Below the pieces are notes generated by a model, which was given only the letters and a program-made list of their open reading frames with translations, was not told the DNA's origin and did not search any database. The position numbers and the translations under genes were made by a program. DNA of 64,000 nt from an uncultured Clostridia bacterium. GTDB lineage: Bacteria; Bacillota; Clostridia; TANB77; CAG-508. This document shows, piece after piece, positions 15,436 to 47,913 of this stretch (position 1 is the stretch's first letter; each line of letters begins with the position of its first letter). The stretch is taken from NCBI GenBank assembly GCA_944389745.1, contig CALXNM010000004.1, forward strand, positions 795 to 64,794, in the 5' to 3' direction.

Positions 15436-18400
15436 TTATTTATTTTTCTCTTTTTTGTTGTTTTTTATAATTATTTTTCTTAAAACAACTAACGCTATTA
15501 CAGCTACAGCAATTATTGAAATTACTATTACAGCACCATTTGCTTGTGGCTTACTTTCTTCGTTTGTTTCATAGTTGTAAACACTTTCTAAGCCATTTTC
15601 TTTAATTTTTGTTGTTTCTGACACAGGTGTTTCTTCTTCTCCATTTAGTATTTCATCTTCGCTGTATACTTCATATTCACCTGTATCTGCATTATATACT
15701 GTAATGTAACTGTTGTCTGCAGTTGTACTTGTATTAGTATTTGAATTTACATTTTCAGAGCTAGAGTTTCCGCTTAAATTATCTGTATTGTTAGTGCTGA
15801 TACCGTTGTTTGATGCTCCTTGCATTGCTTCTTCTACTGGTAATTTAGCAAGTTTTTCTTCTAGTTCTTTACTCTTTTGATATTCTTGCTGCTTATCTTC
15901 ATAGTCATTCCATATATTTGCAAAACTTCTAGTTAAATAATTTACTAGTCCTTCATCTGCTTTTTCGTCATTTTCATATATAACATTTCCAGTTACATAG
16001 TTGAACACAATTACTTTTCCAGTATTGTATAGCACCATCATTTCAGGCTTTTCTACATCTGTATTTTGAACTATTTGATTAATGTTACTACTTAAGAAAT
16101 TATCTGGATATTGTAGCATTTCTTTTAAGTCTACTAATTCTCCTGCACTGTTTAATATTGTTTGATACTCTTTGTTGTTATAATTATCTACAATACTGTT
16201 TCCAATTTTCATATCTACATTACTTGCTATTGCTGATAACTCATCATTTCTTACATTATATATTTGTGATTTTATATTGTCATTTACTGTACTATATGTC
16301 CCATATGTTTCTATGATATTTCCGTTGTAGCTGTATGTGTGAAGTGGAGTTGTAGTTTGTTGTAATGTTGTAGTAACCGCCTCAGTTGATTTTTCATTTG
16401 TGCTATCTTCTGCATTTGTTACCGTTTGTTTTGTTGCAATATCCACAATTTGTCCACTACTACTTAATGCATAACCATCATATACATTTACATAGTCTCC
16501 TAATTGACCTTCTCCGTTTATGTATAAGCTTGTGCCTAATAAGTATGCGTTGTTGCTACCTACTAAGCTTGCTTCACTTCTTACTTCATCTGGTGTAATT
16601 GTAATTGTTTCATTGTCTTGTCCGTTTGTTAGCTTTATTTCTAATGTGTCTTGGTAATTGTATTTGAATGTATATGTTTTCTTAGTTAAGTCTACCTTTT
16701 CTTTTTCTTCACCATTTACGTAATATGTAAAGCTTACTCCTTCTGGAATATCACTAAAATCTATATTTATCTCATCTACCTTTGTTGGATACACTTTATA
16801 ACTTGGTAATGATTCTAGTCTTTGTGTTGATATTCCATTTGCATCAGCTAAATTGTTTGTGTTATTTCTTGTTCCATTAGCATTATCATCGTTTTCATCA
16901 TCAACACTTAATGAGTTTAATTCTGTAATTTCTGGGTCTGTTGGTAAGTCTACACCAGTTTGTAATTCTGGCAAGTATAAAAACGGATTTTTAGGATATT
17001 TTCCCTCTGACAGTGATGCATAATTCCAATATGTTGTTCCTAGTCCAATCTTACTAGAATATGTATTTTGTTTCTCTAAATCTGATCTTACTAAATATTG
17101 TTCGTCATCAATATTATCATTCGTTGCATAAACATAATTTCCGTTTAAAGTACTATACCTATACACATATGTATTCGTTATATAATCATTTTCGTCCGGT
17201 CTTCCACCTATTATTAGTGAACTAGTAGAAGTATTATCACTTATAACATCAGCTTCTATATAATTATTATTATATAACGGTTGTTCTCTATAGATTGCCG
17301 CAGTAATATCACCTATTAGCCCTCCAGCTTTAGTTGGTGCAGTAATAGAACTATCAATTACCATTGAATCTTGAACACTAACAGTTTTAGTTAAAGATGT
17401 CATACCAGTATTATTAATTCCTCCAAAAACCCCTCCGGCAGAACTTACATCTGCACTTACCTTAACATTTATGCTTAACTGCCCGACTCTCCCCCAAGAA
17501 GAAAATCCGTAAACACCACCACAATTCGATGCTCCTCGAATTACACTTTTAGCAATATATCCTTGATATAAACTCGATCTACCGTCACCTACATTATAGC
17601 CAACAACACCACCTGCATTAACACCATTACTATCAACGACAACACCATCTACCTGAAAGTCCCAAAGCGAAGTCCAAGAAACACCTCCAATAAGTCCTCC
17701 AGTACCTTGTGAATTTGCATTAGCAGATGTCACTTCTGTATCATACACAGCCCACTCTGAATTTACGCCGCCATTAAGTAAACCAGCAATACCTCCCGTG
17801 CTAAACGCTCCAGATATACGACATAATTGCACTTCTATATTTTTTCTGTTACTACTACCTTCATACGCATTAACATATCCAAATATACCACCAACATTAG
17901 TATGTCCATCAACCTCTGTATTAAAAGCTTTAAAATCCAAGAAACTACCATATTGACTTCCACCTAAGATTCCAGCTACATAATTATTACCTACTATATT
18001 TGAATTTTCTATATACAAATTTTCCATATTAAAATGACTACCAAATTGATATCCTATAATTCCTCCAATATAATTACTTCTTCCATTAATCGTTATATCA
18101 TTACCATTTATATTATGAATATAAGTACTTATTGGAATAGAAATATAGCCTACTAGTCCACCGATGTAACCCTGCCCATTAATCGTTATACTATACAGAT
18201 TCACATCATAGATTTTTCCTGAAGTCATCCCCCCTATCATTCCCATATAACTTATACCATTTGCTTCAATAGTAACCTTATTAAATCTTAAATTTTCTAC
18301 GTCTCCATTATTACTTGCAATCACTCCAAAATAATTTCCAGAACCAGCTGTATTTGTTAAAGTTATATTTTCAAACCCTATATTTTTAATGCTTGTTTTT

Positions 18401-21400
18401 ACATTGTTTATTAATCCTGTATTTGCTGTACTATATGATAACTCCATATTCTTTAATGTATATACTTTATTTTCCGCCTCTAACCTATTTACATTTATGT
18501 TATTTTTTATATTCGTTTTGCCTGCAAAATCTATATCTGCCATTAATCTATAGTTTTGATAAGTATCTTCTTCTATACTTTGCCAATCTTCATATGTATA
18601 TATTTCTTTATAGAATTGTACTGGTATCTCATTTTCCACTTCTTTTATTTGCTCTTCCTCTTCATTTTCCATCTTGTATTTTATTCCAGTTAGTTTATAG
18701 CTATCATAATATCTTGTTGGTGTAACACGCACTGTTATGCTTGTTATTCCGTTTTGCGTTACATTTCTTGTTATACCTGCAACTATCATATCCTCTATTT
18801 CTATATTTGTTATTTCTACTTCTTCTGGATTATTTATTCTTATTGTTATTTCTGCTTCCGTTGTATTTGGTTTTATTGCTTCTAGACTTTCTATTACTAA
18901 ATCTATATTATCTATTTCTTTATTTTCATCCACATATATATCTTCTTGATTTGGTAATAGTTCTGTTCCTTCTATATTATATAACTTTGGTAATATTCCT
19001 TCGCCTTTACCATCATAATTATAATTATCACCTAAATCCAAACTTAAAACCTCTTCTTCATTTAAAAGAGTAGCTCCTTTTTCTTCGTTATTTTCATAAC
19101 CGTTTAATAACTGTTTTTCATATGCATAGTTATTACTTACTGTATCAGAATTGTTTCCAATTGTTCTATTTAAAATATCCAATCCCGATGTTGTGTATAT
19201 GTTTCCTATACTTAAATTATTTGTAATAGATTCTAACCTACTACCAGAGTATAAACCAATTATTCCTCCAACATTACTGTTTGTTGTTGAAATATTTACT
19301 TTTGAATAACAATTTTCTATGTTTGCAGTTCCTATTGCTCCTATAATTCCTCCTACGTTTAAGTTAACTGAATTAATTTGCCCTTCTGCATAACAGTTTC
19401 TTATTTTATTTGAATTGTCACCTAAGCCAGCTATTCCACCTATTCCAGAACTTACACCTTTTGTATCATTTATATATAATCTTTTTACATAACAATTTTC
19501 TATAGTTGTGTTAGCAATTTGTCCAACTAATCCTCCTATTATAACGTTACTCAAATTGCCACTTACCGTTATTTTGACATTATTAGCCGAACAATTTTTT
19601 AATGTTGAATAAACTGAATCATGCAATATTGCTCCAGCTCCCCAATTACCTGTTTTTGTTATAGTAACATTTGACATATGCACATTATCAATTGTTGAAC
19701 CATTTTGAGCGTGCGTTATTAGTCCCCCATTCGACGTTACTTCTTGATTAAAATTGGTTATAAATAAATTATTTAAAGTTCCATATAAATTACCAATAAA
19801 TCCGATATCACTGTTCATATTTATATTTGATATAGTATGTCCATTTCCGTTTATTATTCCGTTTATATTTGGCAAATTTATAGTATTTCCTTCATTTATA
19901 AAATTTAAATCAGACATAAGCATATAGTTTTCAGTAGGTGAATCATTTATAGCCTTCCAGTCATTTACATTCCATATTTCTTTATATAAATCTACATTTA
20001 TTACTCTTTCCCCTGCATCATATGGTCTCGTATATGAACTTCCAAATGCACCTTTTACAGTAATACTTTGTACATCATAACTTGATACACGTATTACTGG
20101 ATTTTTTAATTCTGCTATTACAGTACTTTTTCCATTACTATATTCTTGTGATAGTATCTCTACATCTAAGTTTGCTATTTTTATTTCGCTTATTTGCTCT
20201 GCTGATGGATTATTTACGCTGAACTGTACTTTTACCGTATCAGTTCCTTGTTCTAATACCCTTGTTGATAATATATCCGGTAAATCAGCATCTTCTACTT
20301 CTGGCAATTCTATATACTCTTGTGCAGGCATAACATCTGGCATATATACCTGCGGATAATACCCCCCATTCACGAGCTCATCTACAATAAAAGCTTTGTT
20401 TCCATTTATTAATTGATTCTGGTATACAACATCCCATAGCGATAATTTATTACCTTTTATTTCAAGCTCATCTGTATATATTGCATCAGAAAAATAGTAA
20501 TTGTTATATATTTTTTTAGAATTCTTATTTTGTATATTAGGGCCATAATCCAAATTATCTTTAGGTTTTTCCTCTATAGAGTAAACATTTTGAATTGTTG
20601 CATTACCATCATTTGTATAAACTAAATTTGATACTTGGTTAGAACCATTAATGTAATTAATATTTATAATTGTAAACATGTTTTCTATTATTCCATTACC
20701 AGTATTATATTGCGTCATTCTCACAACACCTGATGCATTACCTGACTCTAACATATATCCATTTCTTATAGTTCCATAATTTTGATAGTTCATACCTGAA
20801 ATTGAATATGCATCTTTTAAATTAATAACAAAATTTTCTATAAATCCATAATTATTGTAAGCCAATAACCAAAAATCCGTATTTTCGTTTTGGTTTGTTT
20901 CAATTAAATTTAATTGTACATTCTTTAAAGTTCCATAATTTTCAAGAGTTAATCCTCCATGTAATATTGTAGCGACTGAATTATTTATCTTTAAATCAAA
21001 TATTAAATTCTCTAAAGCCCCTTTGTTTCCTATTCTATGAAATATTTGAGAATTATTACTTAAGTCTCTTTTTAAAGTTTTACCATTAAAATCGATTCTT
21101 CCTTCAAATGGAAGTCCATAATATCCAAATCTATACTGAGTTCCAGAAACTCCTGATAAATCTATATCATTTAATACTATATATTCTCCATATGGTTGTA
21201 TTTTTAGAAAATCATTTAAATTTCTTATTCCCTTTATTTCTTTTCCACCTTCTGTTGAAAATTCTTGTGAGTCTAATCCATAATATCTATCTGATATTTT
21301 TACCAATAATTCTATTCTATAATTTGCATCTGGTTCTAAATTGTAAGTTTTTTGTACATTTTCTACTATATTGCTTTCGCCTATTTCTTCGTAACGAATT

Positions 21401-24400
21401 TCTTGAACTTGTTCATCATTTTTGTAGATTCTTATGTAATAGTCATTAGTGATTATTTCATTTCTTGCATCAATCACTGTTACTAATACATTTACGTTAT
21501 AATCATATTTAAATTCTTCGTAATCTGTTTTTCTATTGCCAAGTTCTGCTTGTAAATCTTGTATTTCTACTTTTGTACTATCTGTTACAACCCTAAATCC
21601 TATATATCCTGTTTTACTCAATGTTGTTGTATAACTATATTCTTTCCAATCATTACTTAAATCATTTATCGTATAATATGTTGTATAACTAGTGTTATTA
21701 AAATCCTCATTATCTTTTTCTATAATTTGAATATTGGTATTATAACTTGTTTTAGCTTTAAAACTTATTGTTATTTCTTGTCCTAAATATTTACTTAAGT
21801 CATAGTATGTACAACTTCTATCACTTGTTAAACCTTTTAGAGTTAAAATTTTTGTATTTTCATTATAATTTAAAACATATTCGTAACTTGTATTAAAACA
21901 TCTTTCGTACCAATTTACCTTAGATGATACATCAATTAAGTTTTTACCTGTTGGTGTCTTTTCTAATCCTATTAAGTCTAAGTTACCACTTATACCAGTT
22001 TCTGTTACTATTTTTATTTCTTTTAATATATAATCTGCCTCGTATGTTGCATCTGTACTTCCTATGTTGTATTGCGGTACATATACTATTATTCTATATG
22101 TTTCATTTGGTGTTAGGTCTTCGTATGTTTTTCTTTCATATTCTGCATTTGTTGGCATTTCACTTAAATCTATTAATTTATTGTCCTTATCTCTTACTTC
22201 TATTCTTACTTGATTTGTTAATACTGCATTATCTATATCTTCTATTCTTATGTCTAAGTCTATCATTGTTCCTATTACAAATTGGTTTCTTACTTGTACT
22301 TCTGCTGGCATTTTTAGTGTTATTATCTGTTCTAGATTTTGTTTATCTTCTACTACTGTTTCTATCGAGCCTTGTTTTACTGTAGTTATTACATCTATTC
22401 TGTATATTGTGTTTGAATTTAATTGGTCTAAGTTTAATTCTATTTCTTCGGATACTTTTAATTGTTCTACTTGTTCATCTGTTAATGTTATTCTTTTTAT
22501 TTCTGTTTCTTCTGGCTCTTCTCCTTCATCATACTCTATATTTTTTCCTTGGTCATAAATTACGACTTCTACTTTATTTAGAATAGCTACTAGTCTTGCA
22601 TCTGTTTGATTTGTATCTATACTTATTCCAAGTTGTATACTATCTTGTTTTACTTCTTTATCATCTATATGTACTTGCATGTATCCTAGTGAAGCTAATG
22701 GTCTTGTTACAAAACTTCCTCTTCCTAGTTCTGCATTTTGTTGTTTTCCATCTCCATTTTCTAGATTGTAATCTCCATAAATTATGATTTGGTAGTATCC
22801 ATTCGGATCAAGGTCATTGAATGTTAATTTCTCTTTTTCATTGCTTTTGTTTAAAGTACCTTGCTTTACTACATCTCCACTTTGGTTTGTTATTTCATAT
22901 CTATAATTTTCTAGTTTTACATTGTCCTTGTTTGTTAAAGTAATTTCAAGGTCTACTTCTGTAACATCTTGTTTTGTTACTCTTATACTTGCACTTGGTG
23001 CTTGTTTTGATGTTATTGTTTCTCCTGTGTTGTTTTTTTCTTTTAACTCGTTGCCGTATCTATCAAATGCTGTGATTTCGTATTTTATTTTGCTGTTTGA
23101 TGTTAGGTTTTCGCTTGTTTGGAAGGTTATTTCTTTTCCAGCTTTTAATTCGTCTATCTGGTCATTTGTTAGTCTATATGCTGCATCTCCTATCTCTACT
23201 TGTAACCTTGAAATTCCTTTTATTACTTCTTCATTTAAATCATTGTTTAGTTTTAGGTTTATTAGTTCTATTTTGTTTGAATATATTTCTCCATTTTGGA
23301 AACTAAAGTCTATTGTTCCTAATGCACTTATTGGTTTTGTTTTTACTGTTCCGTTGTAGAATTCTTCTTCTTTCTCTACACCGTCTTCATCATAGTAGTA
23401 AAATACTCCTCTTATCTCAAACTCTGTATCTGGTTGTAGGTTTGTTATTTCTATGTTTCCTGTTTGTGTTGCTAGTGCTCTTCTATTTAATCTTCCGTCT
23501 AAATATATTTCAAATATTACTCCTCTTGATATTACACCTGCTCTATCTGTTACTGATAGATTTGTGCTTATTGTATATACACCTGATTCAAAATCTGTAC
23601 AGCTTACTGTTGGTTTCTCCCACATACCCTCTTGCCACTCTTGTTCTTCTGGTTCAGTTGTTTCTATTTTATTTGTGTTGCTTTCATTATTTTCTTTATG
23701 CGTATTGTTTTCTTCTGAAGTTGTGTTCTCTGCTATTTCGTTTGTTTCATTTACTACTTCTTCTTTATTATTATTTTCTTCAACTTGAATAATCCCTAGT
23801 CTCTCTAAGAATGTCTTATATATTAATTCTTCTTCATTAACTTCTATCTTAGAATCCATGTCTATATCGTTTATTCTTTTATACTGCATATACCAAATTT
23901 GCACATCAGTGTCGTCTTGCATCTCATAATATGCTATATAATCTTCTGTAAAGTATATATTACTGAATTCTTTTATTTCATAGCTGTTTGATGCTGTATT
24001 TATTTTTATTTTTCCTACGTTTGTATAAATTTCATCTTCACTTTTTAAGAATATGTACTTGTTTCCATCTGCTCTTGTTATATCCGCTCCGTTATACATT
24101 ACTCCATCTGTCATCATGAAGTCCGGGTACCCTTCTACTTCTTCATAATTTACTGTTATTAATCTAGTAGTTGGTCCGATGTTTAGCAAAGCGTTTCCCT
24201 CATTTATGTATATTGGATAGTTTATATCTATTTCTTTTTTATCATCTTCTCCAATGTAATATGAATTTAATCTTTTATATAATAAGTCATTTTCGTGCAC
24301 TTCAACTAAGTCTAAGTATGGATTTACATTAGACACATCGCTATTTTTTAGGTTCTCTACCATTGATTTACCTTCTACTGCATATCCACTATATGTTATT

Positions 24401-24588
24401 ATCATTTCTGGTGCATATCTTAAAAACACATAATATATAATAGCTATTATGATTAACATTATAATTAAACCTATTAAAATAAATGTAGGTAAATTTTTGG
24501 TATTTATTCTCTTAGTTTTATTATTTAGTCCTTTATTTAATTTTCTATTTTGTTTTGCCTCATTATTTCTAATTTGTCTCTTTTTCAC
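15436..24588 (-). CDS. Giant surface protein paralog 1 (3050 aa): N-terminal signal-anchor, Ig-like repeats, three GLUG-like repeat blocks, C-terminal TM plus basic tail
   Basis: An uninterrupted 9.15-kb ORF. TM helix LPTFILIGLIIMLIIIAIIYYVFL. Many G-G-[LIV]-[LIVF]-G repeats (YIGGLVGY, YIGGIIGY, NVGGIFGY, AGGLIGD). C-terminus ANGAVIVISIIAVAVIALVVLRKIIIKNNKKEKNK. GTG start after GAGGT. Confidence 0.9.
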   Translation of the reverse strand: MKKRQIRNNEAKQNRKLNKGLNNKTKRINTKNLPTFILIGLIIMLIIIAIIYYVFLRYAPEMIITYSGYAVEGKSMVENLKNSDVSNVNPYLDLVEVHENDLLYKRLNSYYIGEDDKKEIDINYPIYINEGNALLNIGPTTRLITVNYEEVEGYPDFMMTDGVMYNGADITRADGNKYIFLKSEDEIYTNVGKIKINTASNSYEIKEFSNIYFTEDYIAYYEMQDDTDVQIWYMQYKRINDIDMDSKIEVNEEELIYKTFLERLGIIQVEENNNKEEVVNETNEIAENTTSEENNTHKENNESNTNKIETTEPEEQEWQEGMWEKPTVSCTDFESGVYTISTNLSVTDRAGVISRGVIFEIYLDGRLNRRALATQTGNIEITNLQPDTEFEIRGVFYYYDEDGVEKEEEFYNGTVKTKPISALGTIDFSFQNGEIYSNKIELINLKLNNDLNEEVIKGISRLQVEIGDAAYRLTNDQIDELKAGKEITFQTSENLTSNSKIKYEITAFDRYGNELKEKNNTGETITSKQAPSASIRVTKQDVTEVDLEITLTNKDNVKLENYRYEITNQSGDVVKQGTLNKSNEKEKLTFNDLDPNGYYQIIIYGDYNLENGDGKQQNAELGRGSFVTRPLASLGYMQVHIDDKEVKQDSIQLGISIDTNQTDARLVAILNKVEVVIYDQGKNIEYDEGEEPEETEIKRITLTDEQVEQLKVSEEIELNLDQLNSNTIYRIDVITTVKQGSIETVVEDKQNLEQIITLKMPAEVQVRNQFVIGTMIDLDIRIEDIDNAVLTNQVRIEVRDKDNKLIDLSEMPTNAEYERKTYEDLTPNETYRIIVYVPQYNIGSTDATYEADYILKEIKIVTETGISGNLDLIGLEKTPTGKNLIDVSSKVNWYERCFNTSYEYVLNYNENTKILTLKGLTSDRSCTYYDLSKYLGQEITISFKAKTSYNTNIQIIEKDNEDFNNTSYTTYYTINDLSNDWKEYSYTTTLSKTGYIGFRVVTDSTKVEIQDLQAELGNRKTDYEEFKYDYNVNVLVTVIDARNEIITNDYYIRIYKNDEQVQEIRYEEIGESNIVENVQKTYNLEPDANYRIELLVKISDRYYGLDSQEFSTEGGKEIKGIRNLNDFLKIQPYGEYIVLNDIDLSGVSGTQYRFGYYGLPFEGRIDFNGKTLKRDLSNNSQIFHRIGNKGALENLIFDLKINNSVATILHGGLTLENYGTLKNVQLNLIETNQNENTDFWLLAYNNYGFIENFVINLKDAYSISGMNYQNYGTIRNGYMLESGNASGVVRMTQYNTGNGIIENMFTIININYINGSNQVSNLVYTNDGNATIQNVYSIEEKPKDNLDYGPNIQNKNSKKIYNNYYFSDAIYTDELEIKGNKLSLWDVVYQNQLINGNKAFIVDELVNGGYYPQVYMPDVMPAQEYIELPEVEDADLPDILSTRVLEQGTDTVKVQFSVNNPSAEQISEIKIANLDVEILSQEYSNGKSTVIAELKNPVIRVSSYDVQSITVKGAFGSSYTRPYDAGERVINVDLYKEIWNVNDWKAINDSPTENYMLMSDLNFINEGNTINLPNINGIINGNGHTISNINMNSDIGFIGNLYGTLNNLFITNFNQEVTSNGGLITHAQNGSTIDNVHMSNVTITKTGNWGAGAILHDSVYSTLKNCSANNVKITVSGNLSNVIIGGLVGQIANTTIENCYVKRLYINDTKGVSSGIGGIAGLGDNSNKIRNCYAEGQINSVNLNVGGIIGAIGTANIENCYSKVNISTTNSNVGGIIGLYSGSRLESITNNLSIGNIYTTSGLDILNRTIGNNSDTVSNNYAYEKQLLNGYENNEEKGATLLNEEEVLSLDLGDNYNYDGKGEGILPKLYNIEGTELLPNQEDIYVDENKEIDNIDLVIESLEAIKPNTTEAEITIRINNPEEVEITNIEIEDMIVAGITRNVTQNGITSITVRVTPTRYYDSYKLTGIKYKMENEEEEQIKEVENEIPVQFYKEIYTYEDWQSIEEDTYQNYRLMADIDFAGKTNIKNNINVNRLEAENKVYTLKNMELSYSTANTGLINNVKTSIKNIGFENITLTNTAGSGNYFGVIASNNGDVENLRFNKVTIEANGISYMGMIGGMTSGKIYDVNLYSITINGQGYIGGLVGYISIPISTYIHNINGNDITINGRSNYIGGIIGYQFGSHFNMENLYIENSNIVGNNYVAGILGGSQYGSFLDFKAFNTEVDGHTNVGGIFGYVNAYEGSSNRKNIEVQLCRISGAFSTGGIAGLLNGGVNSEWAVYDTEVTSANANSQGTGGLIGGVSWTSLWDFQVDGVVVDSNGVNAGGVVGYNVGDGRSSLYQGYIAKSVIRGASNCGGVYGFSSWGRVGQLSINVKVSADVSSAGGVFGGINNTGMTSLTKTVSVQDSMVIDSSITAPTKAGGLIGDITAAIYREQPLYNNNYIEADVISDNTSTSSLIIGGRPDENDYITNTYVYRYSTLNGNYVYATNDNIDDEQYLVRSDLEKQNTYSSKIGLGTTYWNYASLSEGKYPKNPFLYLPELQTGVDLPTDPEITELNSLSVDDENDDNANGTRNNTNNLADANGISTQRLESLPSYKVYPTKVDEINIDFSDIPEGVSFTYYVNGEEKEKVDLTKKTYTFKYNYQDTLEIKLTNGQDNETITITPDEVRSEASLVGSNNAYLLGTSLYINGEGQLGDYVNVYDGYALSSSGQIVDIATKQTVTNAEDSTNEKSTEAVTTTLQQTTTPLHTYSYNGNIIETYGTYSTVNDNIKSQIYNVRNDELSAIASNVDMKIGNSIVDNYNNKEYQTILNSAGELVDLKEMLQYPDNFLSSNINQIVQNTDVEKPEMMVLYNTGKVIVFNYVTGNVIYENDEKADEGLVNYLTRSFANIWNDYEDKQQEYQKSKELEEKLAKLPVEEAMQGASNNGISTNNTDNLSGNSSSENVNSNTNTSTTADNSYITVYNADTGEYEVYSEDEILNGEEETPVSETTKIKENGLESVYNYETNEESKPQANGAVIVISIIAVAVIALVVLRKIIIKNNKKEKNK

Positions 24589-24747: not shown

Positions 24748-24822
24748 CTGTAGTTACTTTATCTATATATTTTGAAATTTGAGGCATGCTTAATAGAATT
24801 CTTCTTGCGAAGAATCTGTTAT

Positions 24823-37912: not shown

Positions 37913-40900
37913 TTATCTATTTATTTTATTATTATTTTTTGTATGCTTTTCCTGTTTGCTGTTATTTTTGTTAATTATTTTTCTTAAAATAGCTAATGCT
38001 ATTATAGCTACAGCTATTATTGAAACAACTATTATTGCGCCATTGGCTTGTGGTTTGCTTTCTTCGTTTGTATCATAGTTGTAAACGCTTTCTAGTCCAT
38101 TTTGTTTTATCTTTTCTGTTTCTGATACTGGATTTTCTTCTTCTCCATTTAGTATTTCATCTTCACTGTATACTTCATATTCTCCTGTATCTGCATTGTA
38201 TACTGTAATGTAATTGTTGTCAGTTGTAGTATTTGTGTTGGTACTTGAGCTGTTGCTTGTGCCTTCTGTTCTTGTTGTTAGGTTTTCATTATTACTATTC
38301 TCTATAGTGTTGTTTTCATTTGTAATTCCTGTTTCATTTTTATTATTTTCTTGTATCGCTTCTTCAATTGGCAATTTTGCTAATTTTGCTTCTAGTTCTT
38401 TACTCTTTGCATACTCTTGTTGTTTTTGCTCATAATCACTCCATATACTTGATATGCTTCCTGTTATGTAATCAGTTAAGCTTGAATCAGCTTTTTCTTC
38501 GTTTTCATAAACTATATTTCCAGTTACATAGTTAAATATTAGTACTTTTCCAGAATTGTATAGAACCATCGTTTCTGGATTTTCAGCATCTGTGTTTTGC
38601 ACTATTTGTTTTATATTTCTGTTTAAGAAGTTTTCTGGGTATTGTAGCCTTTCTTTTAAGTCTATTAACTCACCTGCACTATTTAATATTGTCTGATATT
38701 CTTTGTTGTTGTAATTATCTACTATGTAGTTATCTATTTTCATATCCAAGCTATTTGATAATGCTGATAGTTCTCCGCTTCTTACATTGTATATTTGTTG
38801 TTTTATATTGCCATTTACTATGCTATATGTTCCATATCTTTCTATGGTGCTACCGTTGTAGCTGTATGTATGGAGTGGAGTCGTAGTTTGTTGTAATGAG
38901 GTTGTAACCACTCCGGCTGTGACTGTTTCGCCTGTTATTCTATCTGTAGATTCTGCTACAACTTCATTGTATGTGTTCTCATTTGTTGAATTTACATCTG
39001 TATTGTTTTCATTTTTGCTATCTTCTGCATTTGTTACTGTTTGTTTCGTTGCAATATCCACAATTTGTCCACTGCTATTTAGTGCATAACCGTCATATAC
39101 ATTTACATATTCACCTTGTTGTAATTCTCCGTTTATGTATAAACTTGTGCCAAGTAAATATGCATTGTTGCTACCTACTAAGCTTGCATTGCTTCTTACA
39201 TCTTCTGGTGTGATTGTTATAACGTCTTCATCTACGCCGTTTGTTAGTTTAATTTCTAATGTGTCTCGATAGTTATATTTGAAGGTATATGTTTTTTGTG
39301 TTAGCTCAATTGATTCATTTACATTCAATCCTTCATTTGTATTTTCTATAATTTGTTCACTATTTACACTTTGCTCGATTGTTTCACTTCCACTTTCCAC
39401 ATTTTCACCGTTTACGCTGTACGCAAAACTTACTCCTTCTGGAATATCACTAAAATCTATATTTATCTCATCTACCTTTGTTGGATACACTTTATAACTT
39501 GGTAATGATTCTACACTTTGTGTTGATATTCCATTTTCGTCCGTTATATTGTTTGTGTTAGCTCCGGTTCCATTTGCATTATTGTCATCATTCTCATCAC
39601 TAACACTTAATGAGTTTAACTCTGTAATTTCCGGATCTGTTGGTAATTCTACACCAATTTGTAGTTCTGGATAGTATAAGTATGAATCTTTTATTTTTGG
39701 ATATTTGCCATCTGACACTGATGCATAGTTCCAGTATGTTGTTCCTAATCCAATTTTACCTGAGAATGTATTTTGTTTATCTAGGTCTGTTCTTACTAAA
39801 TATTGGCTATCTTTTATATTGTCATTTGCTGCATATGCATAGTTTCCATTTAATGTACTGTATTTGTATACATATGTGTTCTCTATATATGGATTTTCAT
39901 CTGGTCTTCCTCCAATTATTAGTGAACCTGTTGAAGTGTTTGTACTTATTACATCGGCATCAATGTAGTTGTTGTAATAAAATGATTGGTCTCTATATAT
40001 TTCTTTTGCTATATCTCCAATTAAGCCACCTGCTTTAGAAGAAGCTTCCACCTTTGTGTCCAATACCATTGTATTATATACGCTTATTTGATATCTTGAT
40101 GCATTCATGTTTGTATTGTTCATATACCCTATTATTCCGCCTGCACAATTATTATCTGCTTTTATATCAGCATTTACATACACATGATAATAAGAACCAT
40201 AGTTTGTTAATCCAATAACTCCACCCACATTTGCTCCAGCATGTATTACGCAATTATTCACTAAACCATAAATTTCATTACTTGAAATTGTCGCACTATT
40301 TGTTTTACCAGTAACTCCTCCCACATTTCTGCCATTAGAATTTATCTCAGAGTTTGTGATTTCAAAATAACGAAGTGTATGCCAACTTCCTACCCCTAAC
40401 AATCCTCCAACATTTTGGGAATTTATAGAAGAAGCAATTATAGAAGAATTATCAACACTCCAAAACCTACTAATACTCATACTTACAAAACCGACCACAC
40501 CACCTATATTACTACCGTCTCCGGTTATTTTACATGAATTAATCTCTATATACTTTCTTGCAAAAGAAGTATCAGACGAAGCATTATTATATCCGGCATA
40601 TCCCCCAACATAGCTACCTCCATAGATTTCAGTATTTACCACTTCTATATATGTAATTTCTCCATTATAAGCAAGCCCAAATACTCCTCCGGTATTATCT
40701 TTTCCTGTTATATTTGAATTTTTTATGGAAATATTACTTTCTTCTATATAATTTCCGGTTTGATGGCCTATAATACCTCCAACATAATCCCCTTTTCCAT
40801 CTACTGTTATGTTATCTCCTACTATATTTTTTATTTCTCCACTTGTACTTAATCCAATGTCTCCTGCAAGCCCTCCTACATAACTACCTCCATTTAAAGT

Positions 40901-43900
40901 TATGTCTTTAAGCTTTATATTTTCAATATTTCCCGAAGTCATACCTCCTATCATACCAATATAGTCCATACTACTTGCTTCAATGCTTATATTGTTAAAT
41001 GTTAGGTTTGCAATCTCACCATTATTTGTTGCTATTATTCCAAAATATTCACCGTCACCACTCGTATTTGCAAGTACAATATTTTCGAATCCTATGTTCT
41101 TTATACTTGTTCTTACATTATTTATTAGTCCCACGTTTACTCCATTAAATTCTAATTCTATATTTTTTAGTGTGTATACATTGTTTTCTGCTTCTAGCCT
41201 ATTTACAGTTATATTATTTTTTATATTTGTTTTTCCACTAAAATCTATATCTGCCATTAATCTATAATTTTGAAATGTTCCTTCCTCTATCGATTGCCAA
41301 TCTTCATATGTATATATTTCTTTATAAAATTGTACATTTATTTCTATTTCTATGCTTTTTTCTTGTTCTTCCCCATCTAAATTTATATATTTTATCCCTG
41401 TTAATTTATAAGTATCATAGTATCTATTAGGTGTTGCATAAACCTCTATATTGGTTATTCCGTTTTGTGTTACATTTCTCGTTATATTATTTACCTGCAT
41501 ATCCTCTATTTCTATCCCTGTTATTTTTATTTCTTCAGGATTGCTTATTCTTACAGATATTTCAGCTTCTGTAGTATTAGGTTTCGATGCTTCTACACTT
41601 TCCACTTCTAAATTTACTTCGCCACCAGATGTATCATCTACATAGATATTTGTTTGATTTGGTAGTAACTCCGTTCCATCTGTGTTATATAATTTTGGTA
41701 ACACACCATTAGTCTTACTATCATAATTATACCTATCTCCTAAATCTAAGTTCAATATTTCTTCTTGATTTATTAATATAGCTCCTTTTGCTTCATCTCT
41801 TGCATATCCATTTAATAATTGATTTTCATATGCATAATTATCGGTTATATCCGTGCTGTTTCCTATTATTCTATTTACGGCATCTATTCCTGATGTTGTA
41901 AATATATTCCCTACACTCAAGTTATTTATTATATTTGTAGAGGCATCAGATCCTGAATATAATCCAATAATGCCTCCCACATTAATATTTGTGGTTGAAA
42001 TATTTACTTTTGAATAACAATTTTCTAAGTTTATTTTTGATGCTGCTCCAATTATACCGCCCACTTTATTGTTTTCTGAAATTATTGTTCCTTCAGCATA
42101 ACAATTTTTTATACTATTAGATTCTGAACTACCGTGGCCTACTATTCCTCCAACAGCTGAATTAACTGCTCTTGTATCTTGTATATTTATTCCTTTTGAA
42201 TAGCAATTTTCTATAGTTGTACTATAACTATATCCTATTATTCCACCTATATACATTGTACTAGGTGTTTCTTCTATATTTGCATTTATTTGTATATTAT
42301 TTATTGAACAATTTCTTACACTACTCATATACGTATAGTTTATAATACCACCACAATATCCACTCTCTGTTTTTACAATATTAACATCCGTCATATGAAC
42401 ATCATCAATTAAAGTTCCTGTACCAGCATATGCAATAACTCCTCCATTGGTTGTAATTTCTTGATTAAAATTTTTAATGTATATATTCTTTAAGGTTCCT
42501 CCATTTAAATTTTTTATAAGTGAACTATTAGATAAATTTATATTTGATATACTATGTTCATTACCATTTATTATTCCATTTACATTACTTAAAGCTACTG
42601 TATTTCCTTCATTTATAAAGTTTAAATCTGCCATTAGCATATAATTTTCAGTTGGTGAATCATTCATCTCTTTCCAGTCATTAACATTCCATATTTCTTT
42701 ATATAAATCCACATTTATTACTCTTTCACCTGGATCATATGGTCTTGTATATGAACTTCCAAAAGCTCCTTTGTTACTTATACTTAGTATGTCATAACTT
42801 GATACGCAGATTACTGGATTTTTTAATTCTGCTATTACTGTACTTTTTCCATTACTATACTCTTGTGATAGAATTTCAACATCTATATTTTGTATTTTAA
42901 TATCACTTATTTGTTCAGCTGATGGATTATTTACACTAAACTGAACCTTTACTGTATCAGTTCCTTGCTCTAACACTTTAGTTGACAGTATATCTGGTAA
43001 GTCCGCATCTTCTACTTCAGGTAGCTTTATATATTCTTGTGCTGGCATTACATCAGGCATAATCAATTGTGGATAATAACCTTGGTTGACAAGTTCATCT
43101 ACATTAAATGCATCGTCACCGTTTATTAGTTGATTTTGAAAAGTAGCATCCCATAGCGACAATTTATTACCTTTTGTTTCTAATTCACCTGTAAATATTT
43201 CATCTGCAAAATAATAGTTATTATAAACTTTTTTTGAAGTTTTGGTATATACATTAGGTCCATAAGATAAGTTAGTATTTTCTCCAGTTCCAACAGAATA
43301 AACCTTTTGTATTGTAGAATTATTTTCGATTTCAACAACAATATTTCCTTTGTTATTGCCTACGTCCACTAAATTATCTATGCCTACTAGTGTAAACACA
43401 TTCTCTACAATTGCATTATTAATATTCGAAACAGCAATCTCCCCAACACTTGTTCCTAAGCTACTGGACTCATTTAACACTTTAATGTTTTTACCATAAA
43501 TATATCCATTTCTAATCACTCCGGAATTATTGCCAACCAATAAAGAGGCACTTCTCAAAATATATAATGGCTCTTGTAAATTAACAATAAAATTTTCTAT
43601 AGTTCCATAGTTATTTCTCGCACAGAAATATATAATCGTATTATTTTGTTCCGTTGATTCTATCAAATTAATCTGTATATTTCTTATTGTTCCATAATTA
43701 TAAGAAACAAACATTCCTTGTATAGATACTTCTATTTCGTTATTCATTTTTATATTGAAAACTAGATTTTCTAATATTCCTTTATCTCCTATATTTCTGA
43801 ATATTGAGTCTCCTCTTGTGTCTCTTATAATTGATTTTCCATTAAAATTAATCTTACCTTCAAAATATAAATCATTACATCCAAATCTATACTGACCCCA

Positions 43901-46900
43901 AGAAACATTAGAATATCTTGTAAAATCTAGATCATCTAACACAATATATTCTCCGTATGGTTGTATTTTTAGAAAGTCATTTAAATTAAATATTCCTTTT
44001 AATTCTTTTGAACTTTCTGTTGAGAATTCTTGTGAATCTAGTTCATAGTATCTCTCTTCAATTTTCACTAATAGTTCTATTTTGTAATTTGCATCTGGTT
44101 CTATGTTATATGTTTTTTGCACATTTTCTACTTTATTGTCTTCCCCTAATTCTTCATATCTTATTTCTTGAATTTGTTTGTCGTTTTTGTAAATTCTTAT
44201 GTAATAGTCATTTGTTGTTATTTCATTTCTTGCATCATTCACTGTTACTAAAACATTTGCATTGTAATCGTATTTAAATTCTTCGTAATCGGTTTTTCTA
44301 TTGCCAATCTCTGCTTGTAAGTCTTGTATTTCAACTGAAGCATTATCATTTACTATATGAAATCCTATATAGCCAGTTTTGCTTAACGTAACCGTGTATA
44401 TGTACTCTTGCCAGTCGCTCGTTAAATCATTTATTGTATAATAAGTAGAACAACTTGTATTGTTAAAATCATCACTTGCTTTTTCAATGATACTTATATT
44501 TGTACTATCTGCAGTTCTTGCTTTAAAACTTATTGTTACTGCTTGTCCTAAATATTTGCTTAAGTCATAGTATGTACGTCTTCTATCGCTTGTAAAACCT
44601 TTTAGAGTTAAAATTTTTGTATTTTCATTATAATTAAAACCATATTCATAACTTGTATTGAAACATCTTTCATACCAATTAACTTTTGATGATACATCTA
44701 TTAAGTTCTTACCTGTTGGTGTTTTTTCTAAACCTATTAAATCTAGGTTACCGCTTATTCCAGTTTCAGTAACAATCTCTATTTCTTTTAATATGTAATC
44801 TGCTTCATATGTTGCATCTGTGCTTCCTATGTTATATTGTGGTGCATATACAATAATTCTGTATGTTTCATTTGGCGTTAGGGCTTCGTATGTTTTTCTT
44901 TCATATTCTGAATTTGTTGACATTTCACTTAAGTCTATTAATTTATTGTCTTTGTCTCTTACTTCTATTCTTACTTTATCCACAAGTACTGCTCCATCTA
45001 GGTCTTCTATTCTCATGTCTAGGTCTATCATTGTTCCTATTACAAATTGGTTTCTTATTTGTACTTCTGCCGGCATTTTTAATGTTATTATTTGTTCTAA
45101 GTTTTGTTTATCTTCTACTACCTGTTCTATCGAGCCTTGTTTTACTGTGGGTATTACATCTATTCTATATTTTGTATTAGAGTTTAATTGCTCTAGGTTT
45201 AATTCTATTTCTTCCGATACTTTTAATTGTTCAACTTGTTCATCTGTTAATGTTATTCTTTTTATTTCTGTTTCTTCTGGCTCTTCTCCTTCTTCATATT
45301 CTATATTTTTACCTTGGTCATAAACAACAACCTCTACTTTATTTAATATTGCCACTAATCTTGCATCAGTTTGAACTGTATCTATGCTTATTCCTAAATT
45401 CATACTGTTTTGTGTTACTTCTTTATCATCTATTTTTACTTGCATATATCCAAGGGATGCTAGTGGTCTTGTAACAAAGCTTGCTTTTCCTATTTCTGAA
45501 TTAGTGTGAACTCCTTCTCCATTTTCTATGTCGTAATCTCCATAAATTGTGATTTGGTAGTATCCATTTGGATCAAGGTCATTGAATATTAATGTTTCTT
45601 TATCTTTGTTCTTATCTAATGTACCTTGTTTTACTACATCTCCACTTTGGTTTGTTATTTCATATCTATAATTTTCTAGTTTTACATTGTCTTTGTTTGT
45701 TAAGCTTATTTCAAGGTCTACTTCTGTTACATCTTGCTTCGTTACTCTTATGCTTGCACTTGGCGCTTGTTTTGATGTTATTGTTTCTCCTGTATTGTTC
45801 TTCTCTTTTAATTCATTTCCGAATCTATCAAATGCCGTTATTTTATATTTTATCTTGCTATTTGATGTTAGATTTTCATTCGTTTGGAAAGTTATTTCTT
45901 TTCCTGCTTTTAATTCATCTATTTGGTCATTTGTTAGTCTATATGCTGCATCTCCTATTTCTACTTGTAGTCTTGAAATTCCACGTATTACTTCTTCATT
46001 TAAGTCATTATTTAGTTTTAAGTGTATTAATTCTATTTTGTTTGAATATATTTTTCCGTTTTGGAAGCTAAAGTCTATTGTTCCTAATGCACTTATTGGT
46101 TTTGTTTTTACTGTTCCATTGTAGAATACTTCTTCTTGGTCTTTTCCGTCTTCATCATTGTAGTAGAATATTCCTCTAATCTCATATTCTGAGCTTGGTT
46201 GTAATCCTGTTATTTCAAGTAATCCTGTTTGTGTTGCTTGTACTCTTCTATTTAATCTTCCATCTAAATATATTTCAAATATTACTCCTCTTGATATTAC
46301 TCCTGCTCTATCTGTTACTGATAAGTTTGTACTTATTGTATACACTTCACCTTCGAAGTCTGTGCACTTTACTTCTGGTTTTTCCCATTGTCCTTCTTGC
46401 CATTTTTGTTCATCTGGATTATTTGTTTCTACTTTGTCTATATTTGAATTATTTTCTTCATGTGTTGTGTTGTCTTCTTTTACTGTGTTTTCTTCTATTA
46501 TGTTTTCATTTTCTTCGTTGTTAATACTTTCTTCTACCTGTATGATTCTTAATCTTTCTAAGAATGTTTTGTATGAAATAGTTTCACCATTTACTTCTAT
46601 CTTAGAATCCATGTCTATATCATTTATTCTTTTATACTGCATGTACCAATTCTGTACATCAGAGTCGTCTTGCATCTCATAATATGCTATATAATCTTCT
46701 GTGAAATATATATTGCTGAATTCTTTTATTTCATACTCATTTGATGAAGTTGTTATTTTTATCTTGCCTACGTTTGTGAAAATTTGGTCTTCACTCTTTA
46801 AGAATATGTATTTGTTTCCATCTGCTCTTGTTATATCTGCTCCATTATACATTACTCCATCTGTCATCATGAAGTCTGGGTATCCTTCTACCTCTTCATA

Positions 46901-47365
46901 ATTTACTGTTATTAATTTTGTATTTTTACCTATGTTTAGTAATGCATTTCCTTCATTAATATATATTGGATAGTTTATATCTATCTCTTTTTTATCATCT
47001 TCTCCAATATAATATGAATTTAATCTTTTATATAATAGGTCATTTTCATGTACTTCAATTAGGCCTAAGTATGGGTTCACATTAGACACATCACTATTTT
47101 TTAGGTTTTCAACCATACTTTTTCCTTCTACCGCATAACCACCATATGTGATAATCATTTCTGGCGCATATCTTAAAAATACATAATAGATAATTGCTAT
47201 TATGATAATCATTAAGATTAACCCTATTAATATAAAGGTTGGCAAATTCTTTGTATTTATTTTTTTCGTTTTATTATTATTTAACCCATTATTCTTTTGA
47301 CTATTTTGCTTATTTATTTTTCTATTTTCCCTTGCCTCAGCATTTCTAACTTGTCTGTTTTTCAC
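37913..47365 (-). CDS. Giant surface protein paralog 3 (3150 aa)
   Basis: An uninterrupted 9.45-kb ORF with a GTG start. It has the same architecture as paralogs 1 and 2. Confidence 0.9.
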   Translation of the reverse strand: MKNRQVRNAEARENRKINKQNSQKNNGLNNNKTKKINTKNLPTFILIGLILMIIIIAIIYYVFLRYAPEMIITYGGYAVEGKSMVENLKNSDVSNVNPYLGLIEVHENDLLYKRLNSYYIGEDDKKEIDINYPIYINEGNALLNIGKNTKLITVNYEEVEGYPDFMMTDGVMYNGADITRADGNKYIFLKSEDQIFTNVGKIKITTSSNEYEIKEFSNIYFTEDYIAYYEMQDDSDVQNWYMQYKRINDIDMDSKIEVNGETISYKTFLERLRIIQVEESINNEENENIIEENTVKEDNTTHEENNSNIDKVETNNPDEQKWQEGQWEKPEVKCTDFEGEVYTISTNLSVTDRAGVISRGVIFEIYLDGRLNRRVQATQTGLLEITGLQPSSEYEIRGIFYYNDEDGKDQEEVFYNGTVKTKPISALGTIDFSFQNGKIYSNKIELIHLKLNNDLNEEVIRGISRLQVEIGDAAYRLTNDQIDELKAGKEITFQTNENLTSNSKIKYKITAFDRFGNELKEKNNTGETITSKQAPSASIRVTKQDVTEVDLEISLTNKDNVKLENYRYEITNQSGDVVKQGTLDKNKDKETLIFNDLDPNGYYQITIYGDYDIENGEGVHTNSEIGKASFVTRPLASLGYMQVKIDDKEVTQNSMNLGISIDTVQTDARLVAILNKVEVVVYDQGKNIEYEEGEEPEETEIKRITLTDEQVEQLKVSEEIELNLEQLNSNTKYRIDVIPTVKQGSIEQVVEDKQNLEQIITLKMPAEVQIRNQFVIGTMIDLDMRIEDLDGAVLVDKVRIEVRDKDNKLIDLSEMSTNSEYERKTYEALTPNETYRIIVYAPQYNIGSTDATYEADYILKEIEIVTETGISGNLDLIGLEKTPTGKNLIDVSSKVNWYERCFNTSYEYGFNYNENTKILTLKGFTSDRRRTYYDLSKYLGQAVTISFKARTADSTNISIIEKASDDFNNTSCSTYYTINDLTSDWQEYIYTVTLSKTGYIGFHIVNDNASVEIQDLQAEIGNRKTDYEEFKYDYNANVLVTVNDARNEITTNDYYIRIYKNDKQIQEIRYEELGEDNKVENVQKTYNIEPDANYKIELLVKIEERYYELDSQEFSTESSKELKGIFNLNDFLKIQPYGEYIVLDDLDFTRYSNVSWGQYRFGCNDLYFEGKINFNGKSIIRDTRGDSIFRNIGDKGILENLVFNIKMNNEIEVSIQGMFVSYNYGTIRNIQINLIESTEQNNTIIYFCARNNYGTIENFIVNLQEPLYILRSASLLVGNNSGVIRNGYIYGKNIKVLNESSSLGTSVGEIAVSNINNAIVENVFTLVGIDNLVDVGNNKGNIVVEIENNSTIQKVYSVGTGENTNLSYGPNVYTKTSKKVYNNYYFADEIFTGELETKGNKLSLWDATFQNQLINGDDAFNVDELVNQGYYPQLIMPDVMPAQEYIKLPEVEDADLPDILSTKVLEQGTDTVKVQFSVNNPSAEQISDIKIQNIDVEILSQEYSNGKSTVIAELKNPVICVSSYDILSISNKGAFGSSYTRPYDPGERVINVDLYKEIWNVNDWKEMNDSPTENYMLMADLNFINEGNTVALSNVNGIINGNEHSISNINLSNSSLIKNLNGGTLKNIYIKNFNQEITTNGGVIAYAGTGTLIDDVHMTDVNIVKTESGYCGGIINYTYMSSVRNCSINNIQINANIEETPSTMYIGGIIGYSYSTTIENCYSKGINIQDTRAVNSAVGGIVGHGSSESNSIKNCYAEGTIISENNKVGGIIGAASKINLENCYSKVNISTTNINVGGIIGLYSGSDASTNIINNLSVGNIFTTSGIDAVNRIIGNSTDITDNYAYENQLLNGYARDEAKGAILINQEEILNLDLGDRYNYDSKTNGVLPKLYNTDGTELLPNQTNIYVDDTSGGEVNLEVESVEASKPNTTEAEISVRISNPEEIKITGIEIEDMQVNNITRNVTQNGITNIEVYATPNRYYDTYKLTGIKYINLDGEEQEKSIEIEINVQFYKEIYTYEDWQSIEEGTFQNYRLMADIDFSGKTNIKNNITVNRLEAENNVYTLKNIELEFNGVNVGLINNVRTSIKNIGFENIVLANTSGDGEYFGIIATNNGEIANLTFNNISIEASSMDYIGMIGGMTSGNIENIKLKDITLNGGSYVGGLAGDIGLSTSGEIKNIVGDNITVDGKGDYVGGIIGHQTGNYIEESNISIKNSNITGKDNTGGVFGLAYNGEITYIEVVNTEIYGGSYVGGYAGYNNASSDTSFARKYIEINSCKITGDGSNIGGVVGFVSMSISRFWSVDNSSIIASSINSQNVGGLLGVGSWHTLRYFEITNSEINSNGRNVGGVTGKTNSATISSNEIYGLVNNCVIHAGANVGGVIGLTNYGSYYHVYVNADIKADNNCAGGIIGYMNNTNMNASRYQISVYNTMVLDTKVEASSKAGGLIGDIAKEIYRDQSFYYNNYIDADVISTNTSTGSLIIGGRPDENPYIENTYVYKYSTLNGNYAYAANDNIKDSQYLVRTDLDKQNTFSGKIGLGTTYWNYASVSDGKYPKIKDSYLYYPELQIGVELPTDPEITELNSLSVSDENDDNNANGTGANTNNITDENGISTQSVESLPSYKVYPTKVDEINIDFSDIPEGVSFAYSVNGENVESGSETIEQSVNSEQIIENTNEGLNVNESIELTQKTYTFKYNYRDTLEIKLTNGVDEDVITITPEDVRSNASLVGSNNAYLLGTSLYINGELQQGEYVNVYDGYALNSSGQIVDIATKQTVTNAEDSKNENNTDVNSTNENTYNEVVAESTDRITGETVTAGVVTTSLQQTTTPLHTYSYNGSTIERYGTYSIVNGNIKQQIYNVRSGELSALSNSLDMKIDNYIVDNYNNKEYQTILNSAGELIDLKERLQYPENFLNRNIKQIVQNTDAENPETMVLYNSGKVLIFNYVTGNIVYENEEKADSSLTDYITGSISSIWSDYEQKQQEYAKSKELEAKLAKLPIEEAIQENNKNETGITNENNTIENSNNENLTTRTEGTSNSSSTNTNTTTDNNYITVYNADTGEYEVYSEDEILNGEEENPVSETEKIKQNGLESVYNYDTNEESKPQANGAIIVVSIIAVAIIALAILRKIINKNNSKQEKHTKNNNKINR

Positions 47366-47456
47366 TTCTCATCTATCCTTTCTGCTTTTGCTTTTTATAA
47401 ATTTTCTCTAAAACATTTAGTTCAATATTATTTGTTTACTTTGCTTTTTTACACGC

Positions 47457-47523
47457 AAAAAAGGATAGGCCATATCACCATAAATGTTTCTTTTACAAAC
47501 ATTTACAGTAATACAGTCTATCC
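47457..47523 (-). terminator. Leader terminator L3
   Basis: GGATAGACTGTATTACTGTAAATGTTT...AAACATTTATGGTGATATGGCCTATCC, then TTTTTTG. 26 of 27 positions pair, including G-U wobbles. Confidence 0.7.
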
Positions 47524-47595
47524 TTGTTATTACTTTATTTATATATTCAATTCCAAGCACGCTTAATAAAATTCTTCCTGCAAAGAACTTTTTAC

Positions 47596-47697
47596 TTAAT
47601 AGTGTACATATTCTCTTCCAATTCTTTTGGTAAGAACATAGTGTGTGTGTGTGTGTGTGTGTGTGTGTACAGCGCCAAGGCTTACGTGCTTCGTCAT
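47596..47697 (-). CDS. Leader uORF3 (33 aa, MTKHVSLGAVHTHTHTHTHYVLTKRIGREYVHY) containing (AC)14
   Basis: The ATG frame stops at the TAA at 47596-47598, upstream of the terminator. Confidence 0.35.
   Translation of the reverse strand: MTKHVSLGAVHTHTHTHTHYVLTKRIGREYVHY
47641..47668 (-). repeat. Dinucleotide SSR: (GT)14 on the plus strand, (AC)14 in the transcript sense
   Basis: Direct count of the tract. Confidence 0.95.
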
Positions 47698-47770
47698 TTT
47701 TTAGTTTTTCCTTTCATTCTTTTTTTTAGTTATCTGCATTTTAAAGTTTTCGCCTTCTACAGATAATTTT

Positions 47771-47798
47771 ATTATAACATAAAAAATTTTATTTGAAT
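47771..47798 (-). promoter_or_regulatory. Leader promoter P-L3
   Basis: On the minus strand: ATTCAA/TTCAAA, a 15-16 nt spacer, then TGTTATAAT. Confidence 0.5.
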
Positions 47799-47913
47799 AT
47801 TATTTTCTAATTTTTTATAAATTTTTTAATTACAGCACTCCACGACGCGAAGTATTCTATTTTTCAAAACACATTATCTGTGATATAATATATAATATTA
47901 ATTTTGGAGGATT

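Follow-up and report, generated by a model that had tools for sequence, protein, structure and literature searches.

Repeat-bearing leader cassettes upstream of three giant genes in an uncultured Clostridia bacterium as candidate phase-variable transcription attenuators

The window analyzed here is a 64,000-nucleotide (nt) stretch of DNA from an uncultured Clostridia bacterium (GenBank assembly GCA_944389745.1, contig CALXNM010000004.1, positions 795 to 64,794) with a G+C content of 28.9%. Three giant genes lie in tandem on its minus strand, where an earlier reading of the letters alone (hereafter the sequence-only reading) had placed three same-strand paralogs: G1 (15436–24588, 3050 amino acids (aa), GTG start), G2 (27099–36572, 3157 aa, ATG start, with a terminator-like hairpin past its stop at 27010–27052), and G3 (37913–47365, 3150 aa, GTG start). 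G1 is preceded by two leader cassettes in series (L1 and L0), and G2 and G3 by one each (L2 and L3, respectively). We consider it likely that each cassette is a phase-variable transcription attenuator, and the cassettes probably provide a random ON/OFF switch of giant surface-protein genes.

Each giant has exactly two hydrophobic segments; the first follows a basic tail at the N-terminus, and the second precedes another at the C-terminus. In G1, the N-terminal basic tail is joined to a transmembrane (TM) segment at aa 30–61, and a C-terminal TM segment to the terminal basic tail. The label of giant membrane-anchored surface protein is a topological one, based on these two terminal TM segments. 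Searches of the giants against Pfam and NCBIfam returned essentially no match, and the sole similarity of G1–G3 was a weak one to GLUG, fn3, and IgA1-protease-like sequences, including a weak GLUG/IgA1-protease-like match to aa 1703–1841 of G3 in a PDB sequence search. An AlphaFold2 model of aa 60–340 of a giant was of low confidence (predicted local distance difference test, pLDDT, 57), and Foldseek found no match for it in the PDB. The three proteins are mosaic paralogs with 30–98% identity per 100-aa block. Adjacent blocks jump between ~30% and ~98% identity, and the closest pair shifts along the gene; these block-wise switches suggest gene conversion.

Each full cassette follows the same order, namely an extended −10 promoter, a ribosome-binding site (RBS) with an ATG-initiated upstream open reading frame (uORF), an (AC)n or (AG)n tract within the uORF, a stop box that serves two frames, an 8-bp hairpin, and a 27-bp hairpin followed by a U-tract. 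The homology of the four leaders was borne out by their alignment (70% mean column identity), in which the 3′ ~180 nt were near-invariant. The tracts were found exactly where they had been reported, as (AG)12, (AC)13, (AC)8, and (AC)14 in L0 to L3, and they are the only dinucleotide tracts of at least six units in the 64 kb. The ATG precedes the tract by 29 nt in all 13 leaders examined, and the extended −10 TGTTATAAT and an AAGGAGA-like RBS are held at fixed spacing. The pattern of the hairpin core occurred four times in the window against 0.02 expected, and the stop box CACTATTAAGTAATAG, conserved immediately 5′ of the small hairpin, ends two of the three frames. We refer to these two as the OFF frames and to the remaining, long frame as the ON frame. 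In the window, the tracts lie 250–660 nt upstream of the giant start codons, within uORFs that are separate from the giant genes.

All four cassettes are read on the minus strand. L0 (24589–24905) is of the AG type and has no promoter of its own. Its RBS (24899–24905) is followed by a 21-aa uORF (24823–24888) that is OFF as assembled, with the tract at 24836–24859, the stop box at 24816–24831, the small hairpin at 24797–24816, the long hairpin at 24686–24749, the U-tract at 24682–24686, and the ON-frame stop at 24674–24676. The other three are of the AC type. L1 (25067–25383) has its extended −10 at 25375–25383, its RBS at 25313–25319, a 74-aa uORF (25080–25304) that is ON as assembled, the tract at 25250–25275, the stop box at 25198–25213, the small hairpin at 25179–25198, the long hairpin at 25072–25134, and the U-tract at 25067–25072. 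A public record (P0072, in NCBI and ENA) encodes a peptide identical to this 74-aa product, which makes it probable that NCBI already includes the strain of the window or one very close to it. L2 (36573–37050) comprises an extended −10 (37042–37050), a 5′ untranslated region (UTR) with an insertion of ~45 nt, an RBS (36932–36938), a 31-aa OFF uORF (36827–36922), the tract (36878–36893), the stop box (36824–36839), the small hairpin (36805–36824), the long hairpin (36697–36760), the U-tract (36693–36697), and the ON-frame stop (36661–36663). For L3 (47366–47779), the corresponding positions are 47771–47779 (extended −10), 47707–47713 (RBS), 47596–47697 (33-aa OFF uORF), 47641–47668 (tract), 47589–47604 (stop box), 47570–47589 (small hairpin), 47462–47525 (long hairpin), 47457–47462 (U-tract), and 47417–47419 (ON-frame stop).

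These features largely reproduce the sequence-only reading. The uORFs that it had counted as 22, 74, 32, and 34 codons including the stop correspond to the 21, 74, 31, and 33 aa given above; a motif search recovered the extended −10 in L1, L2, and L3 and its absence from L0; and only the ATG of L1 is in the long frame as assembled, with its stop in the 3′ arm of the stem. Folding confirmed both hairpins with small corrections. The small hairpin has 8 bp rather than 7 when a covarying closing pair is counted, and the long hairpin with its U-tract ends ~90–120 nt before the giant start, not 100–130 nt. The OFF uORFs of the window (L0, L2, and L3) end 68–75 nt before the long hairpin.

The search for related cassettes took several routes. 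A pattern scan covering one genome per species yielded one true relative, the HiFi metagenome-assembled genome (MAG) OZ006978.1 ('uncultured Clostridia bacterium', 1.70 Mb), in which the cassette also precedes a giant gene. At least five cassette-bearing giants form an array in this MAG, interspersed with toxin-antitoxin, Abi, and AAA_14/DUF4143 genes. A scan of JGI metagenome contigs with the hairpin core gave seven matches, all of them unrelated chance matches. Since an exact look-up of the neighboring MutS2 found no match, strains were compared via giant N-terminal fragments and ON peptides: the giant N-terminus as a query gave 24 fragments, a profile of the long-frame peptides gave 41 clusters, and the contigs gave 22 further loci. 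At every relative locus recovered, the cassette was directly upstream of a giant paralog. Because a generic promoter and terminator scanner misses extended −10 promoters and most bulged hairpins, it was replaced by motif searches and folding.

Copies of a locus that were otherwise identical differed in repeat length, and this toggled the uORF between its short and long forms, as the sequence-only reading had anticipated. Window positions 24560–25520 (~960 nt) matched two relatives, L026 and L027, at every base except the two tracts. In both, L1 changes from (AC)13 to (AC)12 and its uORF from 74 to 34 aa (ON to OFF), and L0 changes from (AG)12 to (AG)14 and its uORF from 21 to 72 aa (OFF to ON, peptide P0034). 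A further ON form of L0, P0074, is one dipeptide longer, consistent with (AG)17. Alleles of the L3 locus are (AC)14 and OFF in the window, (AC)17 and OFF in L013, and (AC)16 and ON in L029 and L030 (91 aa, peptide P0026). The window and L013 diverge abruptly at this locus from the hairpin on. One further locus, represented by L009, L010, and L011, carries (AG)12, (AG)13, and (AG)11 with uORFs of 22, 71, and 20 aa, respectively, and one other single-nucleotide polymorphism in 1.6 kb. Within 90% clusters, the differences between ON peptides of one locus are whole HT or ER dipeptides, each equal to three repeat units. Tract differences were found in both HiFi and Illumina assemblies, at many loci.

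The positions of the stops follow the frame. Among 25 leaders, all ON copies stop 53–74 nt past the start of the 61-nt hairpin, and OFF copies stop 68–83 nt before it; the exceptions are two copies from one long-read (Flye-style) assembly, which stop 23 nt before the hairpin after a 1-nt indel. A single repeat unit separates each of the window's OFF cassettes from ON, and in L2 one added unit would give ON. For the tandem L1/L0 arrangement, the states are ON/OFF in the window, OFF/ON in L026 and L027, and ON/ON in the pair of MAG OZ006978.1, where the tandem (AC and AG) precedes an intact giant of 3127 aa.

The long frame was reported as open in all window copies, and this openness extends to the homologous leaders of related genomes. 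In 12 of 12 distinct leaders, it contained no stops, compared with 3–7 in the other two frames, and an open frame of such length arose in 1.4–4.5% of dinucleotide-preserving shuffles per leader (P 0.014–0.045 each). In public data, each of the 41 ON-peptide clusters terminates at ...LMAI, at ...YPFCV/A, or a little further on, and the motifs FFxRRILL and GIDCIxVxV are near-invariant. In leaders with a decayed simple sequence repeat (SSR) (P0048, P0050, and P0051), the repeat is almost lost and the uORF is fixed in the ON frame. In P0035, a second shift, located between the tract and the stop box, compensates and brings the uORF into the long frame.

The leaders also fold better than shuffled sequences (z = −3.5 and −5.0). 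The long hairpin takes the form of an intrinsic terminator, with 27 bp, a folding free energy of −26 to −32 kcal/mol, and a following run of U5–7, and the small hairpin, which has a GNRA-like loop, is conserved right after the stop box. Across 14 leaders, 97.5% of cells were paired in the helices, compared with 44–54% in slid controls, and compensatory changes were found at five base pairs, in both helices. Conserved G·U pairs bias the stability of the long hairpin toward the sense strand (−26 to −32 kcal/mol, against −10 to −27 kcal/mol for the reverse complement, or 3–20 kcal/mol in favor of the sense strand), which points to an RNA element on the strand of the genes. Minimum free energy (MFE) and centroid folds showed no alternative antiterminator helix. 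An Rfam scan of the window at the gathering threshold matched none of the leaders, and an E-value scan of 24500–25500 gave only spurious long-hairpin matches below threshold. The candidate explanation that the long hairpin is the terminator of the upstream gene was rejected because a promoter and a uORF intervene and because the upstream neighbor of L3 is divergent.

One conserved TGnTAnAAT lies upstream of the uORF in each cassette, with tandem pairs sharing a single copy. A motif search found no −10-like element past the hairpins: the spacer that separates the U-tract from the giant RBS, as short as ~55 nt in L009, contains no such hexamer, and the L1 terminator and L0 uORF likewise have no −10 motif between them. 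Transcription of the giants thus appears to rely on read-through, and that of L0 on L1. The lack of a −10 motif between L1 and L0, together with the tandem AC and AG cassettes in the related HiFi MAG, upholds the anatomical part of the serial gating proposed for G1. At the level of sequence, the proposed mechanism withstood each refutation that the sequence-only reading had named.

From these comparisons we infer termination at the hairpin, translation-dependent read-through, and slippage within a population. The leader RNA would start at the constitutive extended −10 promoter, and ribosomes would load at the strong RBS and ATG, 29 nt ahead of a hypermutable tract, (AC)n or (AG)n. The frame in which they exit it would then be set by slipped-strand addition or removal of a single 2-nt unit. 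In two frames, ribosomes would halt in the box CAC-TAT-TAA / AAG-TAA-TAG, ~70–80 nt before the 27-bp hairpin; with the ribosome released early, the hairpin would fold, transcription would terminate, and the giant gene would stay silent (OFF). In the third frame, ribosomes would traverse the 8-bp hairpin as well as the 5′ arm of the long one and stop within the 3′ arm or shortly after the U-tract, and this would block the terminator and let RNA polymerase read into the giant gene (ON). Because nucleotides 60 nt apart pair at the base of the long stem, its length may widen the interval during which a trailing ribosome blocks a termination-competent helix. With a separate cassette per paralog, each paralog would switch independently, and for G1, behind two cassettes and one promoter, both would have to be ON. 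The position of the small hairpin right after the stop box suggests that it is a pause or synchronization site.

Comparison of sequences supports the proposed mechanism well. Several points weigh against an attenuator. The conservation of FFxRRILL and GIDCI.V.V is hard to separate from that of the RNA helices. RNA polymerase moves ahead of the ribosome in Bacillus subtilis, and this disfavors ribosome-mediated attenuation in Firmicutes; an attenuator here would call for a slower polymerase or for pausing, for which the small hairpin is a possible site. There may be partial overlap in samples between the BRZ_* and ONAT22-* assemblies, and some coverage is low (1.6–9x); the independent observations are therefore fewer than the loci. 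By the window consensus, moreover, all three giants are predicted to be OFF (L1 ON and L0 OFF; L2 and L3 OFF), which fits a contingency family without positively demonstrating one.

Other explanations of the same leaders have to be set against this evidence. The uORF frame could control the giants by protecting the transcript from Rho-dependent termination or from RNase, with the long hairpin acting as a stability or processing element. Such protection would give a frame-dependent polymorphism identical to that of an attenuator, and polarity after premature stops is known from siaD of Neisseria meningitidis. However, every copy has the canonical terminator form, with a G+C-rich base (GGGATAG/CTATCC) followed by U5–7; other gene-end terminators of this genome are similar long A+U-rich stems; and the ON stop always falls in or just past the 3′ arm, as a terminator model requires and protection does not. 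We regard control by protection as unlikely. It seems scarcely credible that the leaders have no regulatory role and are intergenic DNA that was duplicated together with the paralogs and whose repeat variation is neutral or an assembly artefact. Shared upstream sequence is expected because the paralogs are recent mosaics, and coverage is low in some assemblies, yet the pattern of one open and two trapped frames persists among leaders with differences at 16% of columns, and also in a MAG that is distinct at the species level. The compensatory changes in both helices, the tract differences seen with both HiFi and Illumina data, and the confinement of long dinucleotide SSRs to the four tracts likewise speak against passive duplication.

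The conserved long frame, which is annotated as a gene in many assemblies, could also mean that the repeat toggles a functional small protein of 62–91 aa that ends at its own terminator, with the giants expressed independently. The near-invariance of its two motifs is what such a protein would predict, but the motifs coincide exactly with the two RNA helices, and the linker between them differs between the AC and AG types. The C-terminus is variable (in the 3′ arm, just past the U-tract, or 15–20 codons later) and the leader peptides have no Pfam match. Independent expression of the giants is further at odds with the lack of a −10-like motif in the short spacer past the terminator and with a cassette that always lies directly upstream of a giant paralog. 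A toggled small protein is, on balance, very unlikely, and the attenuator remains the reading that we favor.

An extension of the attenuator reading, offered tentatively and with more doubt than confidence, is that the cassette is a portable module that recombines among giant paralogs and can be stacked. The L1 and L0 tandem, and also the pair in the HiFi MAG, would then be a stochastic two-bit AND gate, which would give a lower probability of ON or an extra layer of memory. If the 8-bp hairpin with its GNRA-like loop is an RNA polymerase pause, the ribosome would be able to catch up, which would explain ribosome-gated termination in a Firmicute-type organism. Finally, the locus L015 would show that the module can collapse into an ordinary in-ORF switch. 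L015 (ERZ21549409, a long-read assembly) contains at 700–900 a relative of the giants without the terminator leader, in which a uORF-like start, MKKRKNRMALE, and an (AG)n tract are fused directly to the TM segment of the giant and lie one unit out of frame. This arrangement makes L015 a switch of the classic in-ORF SSR kind.

The giant past the leader is broken into two or three ORFs in several assemblies, some of them HiFi (L009 3001–7062, L017 10673–20047, and L020 10273–19705); such splits may reflect genuine frameshift pseudogenes or errors of assembly. Small defence or toxin-antitoxin-like genes occupy the gaps between giants in the window and its relatives. In the window, these are an AAA_14/DUF4143 ATPase at 25511–26851 and, at 37110–37657, a DUF4160 gene, apparently frameshifted and with no in-frame start codon of its own, together with a 91-aa ORF. 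Among the relatives, a DUF4258 gene (L009 1801–2357), an MNT/HEPN pair (L017/L018 8853–9597), and an AbiEi_4 gene with a 277-aa partner (L001 4724–6138) take the same place. A short G+C-rich element centered on GGGGACAGACC occurs four times in the window against 0.12 expected, at 15408–15418 (+), 25476–25486 (−), 36980–36990 (−), and 51084–51094 (−). The copy at 25476 sits within a TGCCAA...TTGGCA palindrome, one copy is carried by the ~45-nt insertion in the L2 5′ UTR, and two lie directly past gene ends. Housekeeping genes flank the region, with rimP-nusA-infB downstream, a divergent MutS2, GroEL, and the 6S (SsrS) RNA (7463–7647, minus strand), the sole Rfam match at the gathering threshold in the window (109.8 bits).

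The predicted ON and OFF alleles are already visible in public assemblies, and, if the cassettes work as proposed, tract length modulo 3 would be a simple rule by which the expression state of each paralog could be read from metagenomes. For annotation, the giants would best be treated as contingency genes and the upstream 'hypothetical proteins' of 60–90 aa as leader peptides.

The proposed mechanism combines elements of several known systems. In classical attenuation (trp, his, and pyrBI), formation of an intrinsic terminator depends on where the ribosome stands on a leader ORF. The logic here would be the same, but the signal would be a heritable reading frame rather than tRNA charging or nucleoside triphosphate supply, and, with no antiterminator helix found in MFE or centroid folds, the ribosome itself would occlude the terminator. 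In-ORF SSR contingency loci, such as Neisseria opa and the CT-dinucleotide genes hopZ and oipA of Helicobacter, share a short tandem repeat near the 5′ end that frameshifts a surface protein ON or OFF. In the window, by contrast, the repeats lie in a separate uORF and their effect on the target would be transcriptional, so that the sequence of the giant protein would never be altered or truncated; the in-ORF form was seen only in L015. The cwpV gene of Clostridioides difficile also has a phase-variable leader between promoter and surface-protein gene, with an intrinsic terminator in the OFF state, but its switch is a site-specific DNA inversion independent of translation, whereas here repeat slippage would be read out by ribosomes.

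The closest parallel is pil1 (and pil3) of Streptococcus gallolyticus, in which GCAGA repeats within a leader-peptide ORF vary in number, and repeat changes that shift the frame yield a longer peptide whose stop falls in or after a premature intrinsic terminator (Danne et al. 2014, PMC3894217). In pil1, ribosome-dependent antitermination is proven by the delta-term, ATG*, and 3-STOP mutants (PMC3894217). The switch of pil1 also functioned in Lactococcus lactis. The sequence-only reading had taken an SSR in a leader peptide that controls a terminator to be undescribed; this claim of novelty fails, since the principle was already shown genetically for pil1 and pil3 (PMC3894217). A full-text search of open-access papers found no example of leader-peptide/terminator phase variation beyond these two. 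The two systems share a promoter, an RBS and ATG leader ORF with an SSR, a stem-loop terminator with a U-run, and a downstream surface-structure gene. In both, a repeat change relocates the leader stop from a site tens of nucleotides before the hairpin to one inside or past it, the longer peptide corresponds to ON (by prediction in the window), and the repeat number differs among strains. There is no sequence homology between them and there are no GCAGA tracts here, so that the resemblance is one of mechanism and not of ancestry. The repeat unit is 2 nt (AC or AG, 8–17 copies) here and 5 nt (GCAGA, 13–26 copies) in pil1 and pil3. Whereas pil1 is low in the in-frame state and high in either shifted frame, here one frame in three would be ON and the other two are trapped by the dual-stop box. 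The hairpin has 27 bp and −26 to −32 kcal/mol here, compared with −18.7 kcal/mol for pil1 and −28.2 kcal/mol for pil3. An additional conserved 8-bp hairpin and cassettes stacked in series distinguish the window from pil1 and pil3, and are testable additions to the known model. The system predicted here serves a family of at least three tandem giant paralogs in uncultured Clostridia. In its predicted workings, it is an independent, non-homologous variant of the pil1-type principle in uncultured low-GC Clostridia. As a second, unrelated instance, in uncultured gut-type Clostridia, it would show that this design arose independently at least once more, and that it can govern a multigene family of surface proteins of ~3,000 aa.

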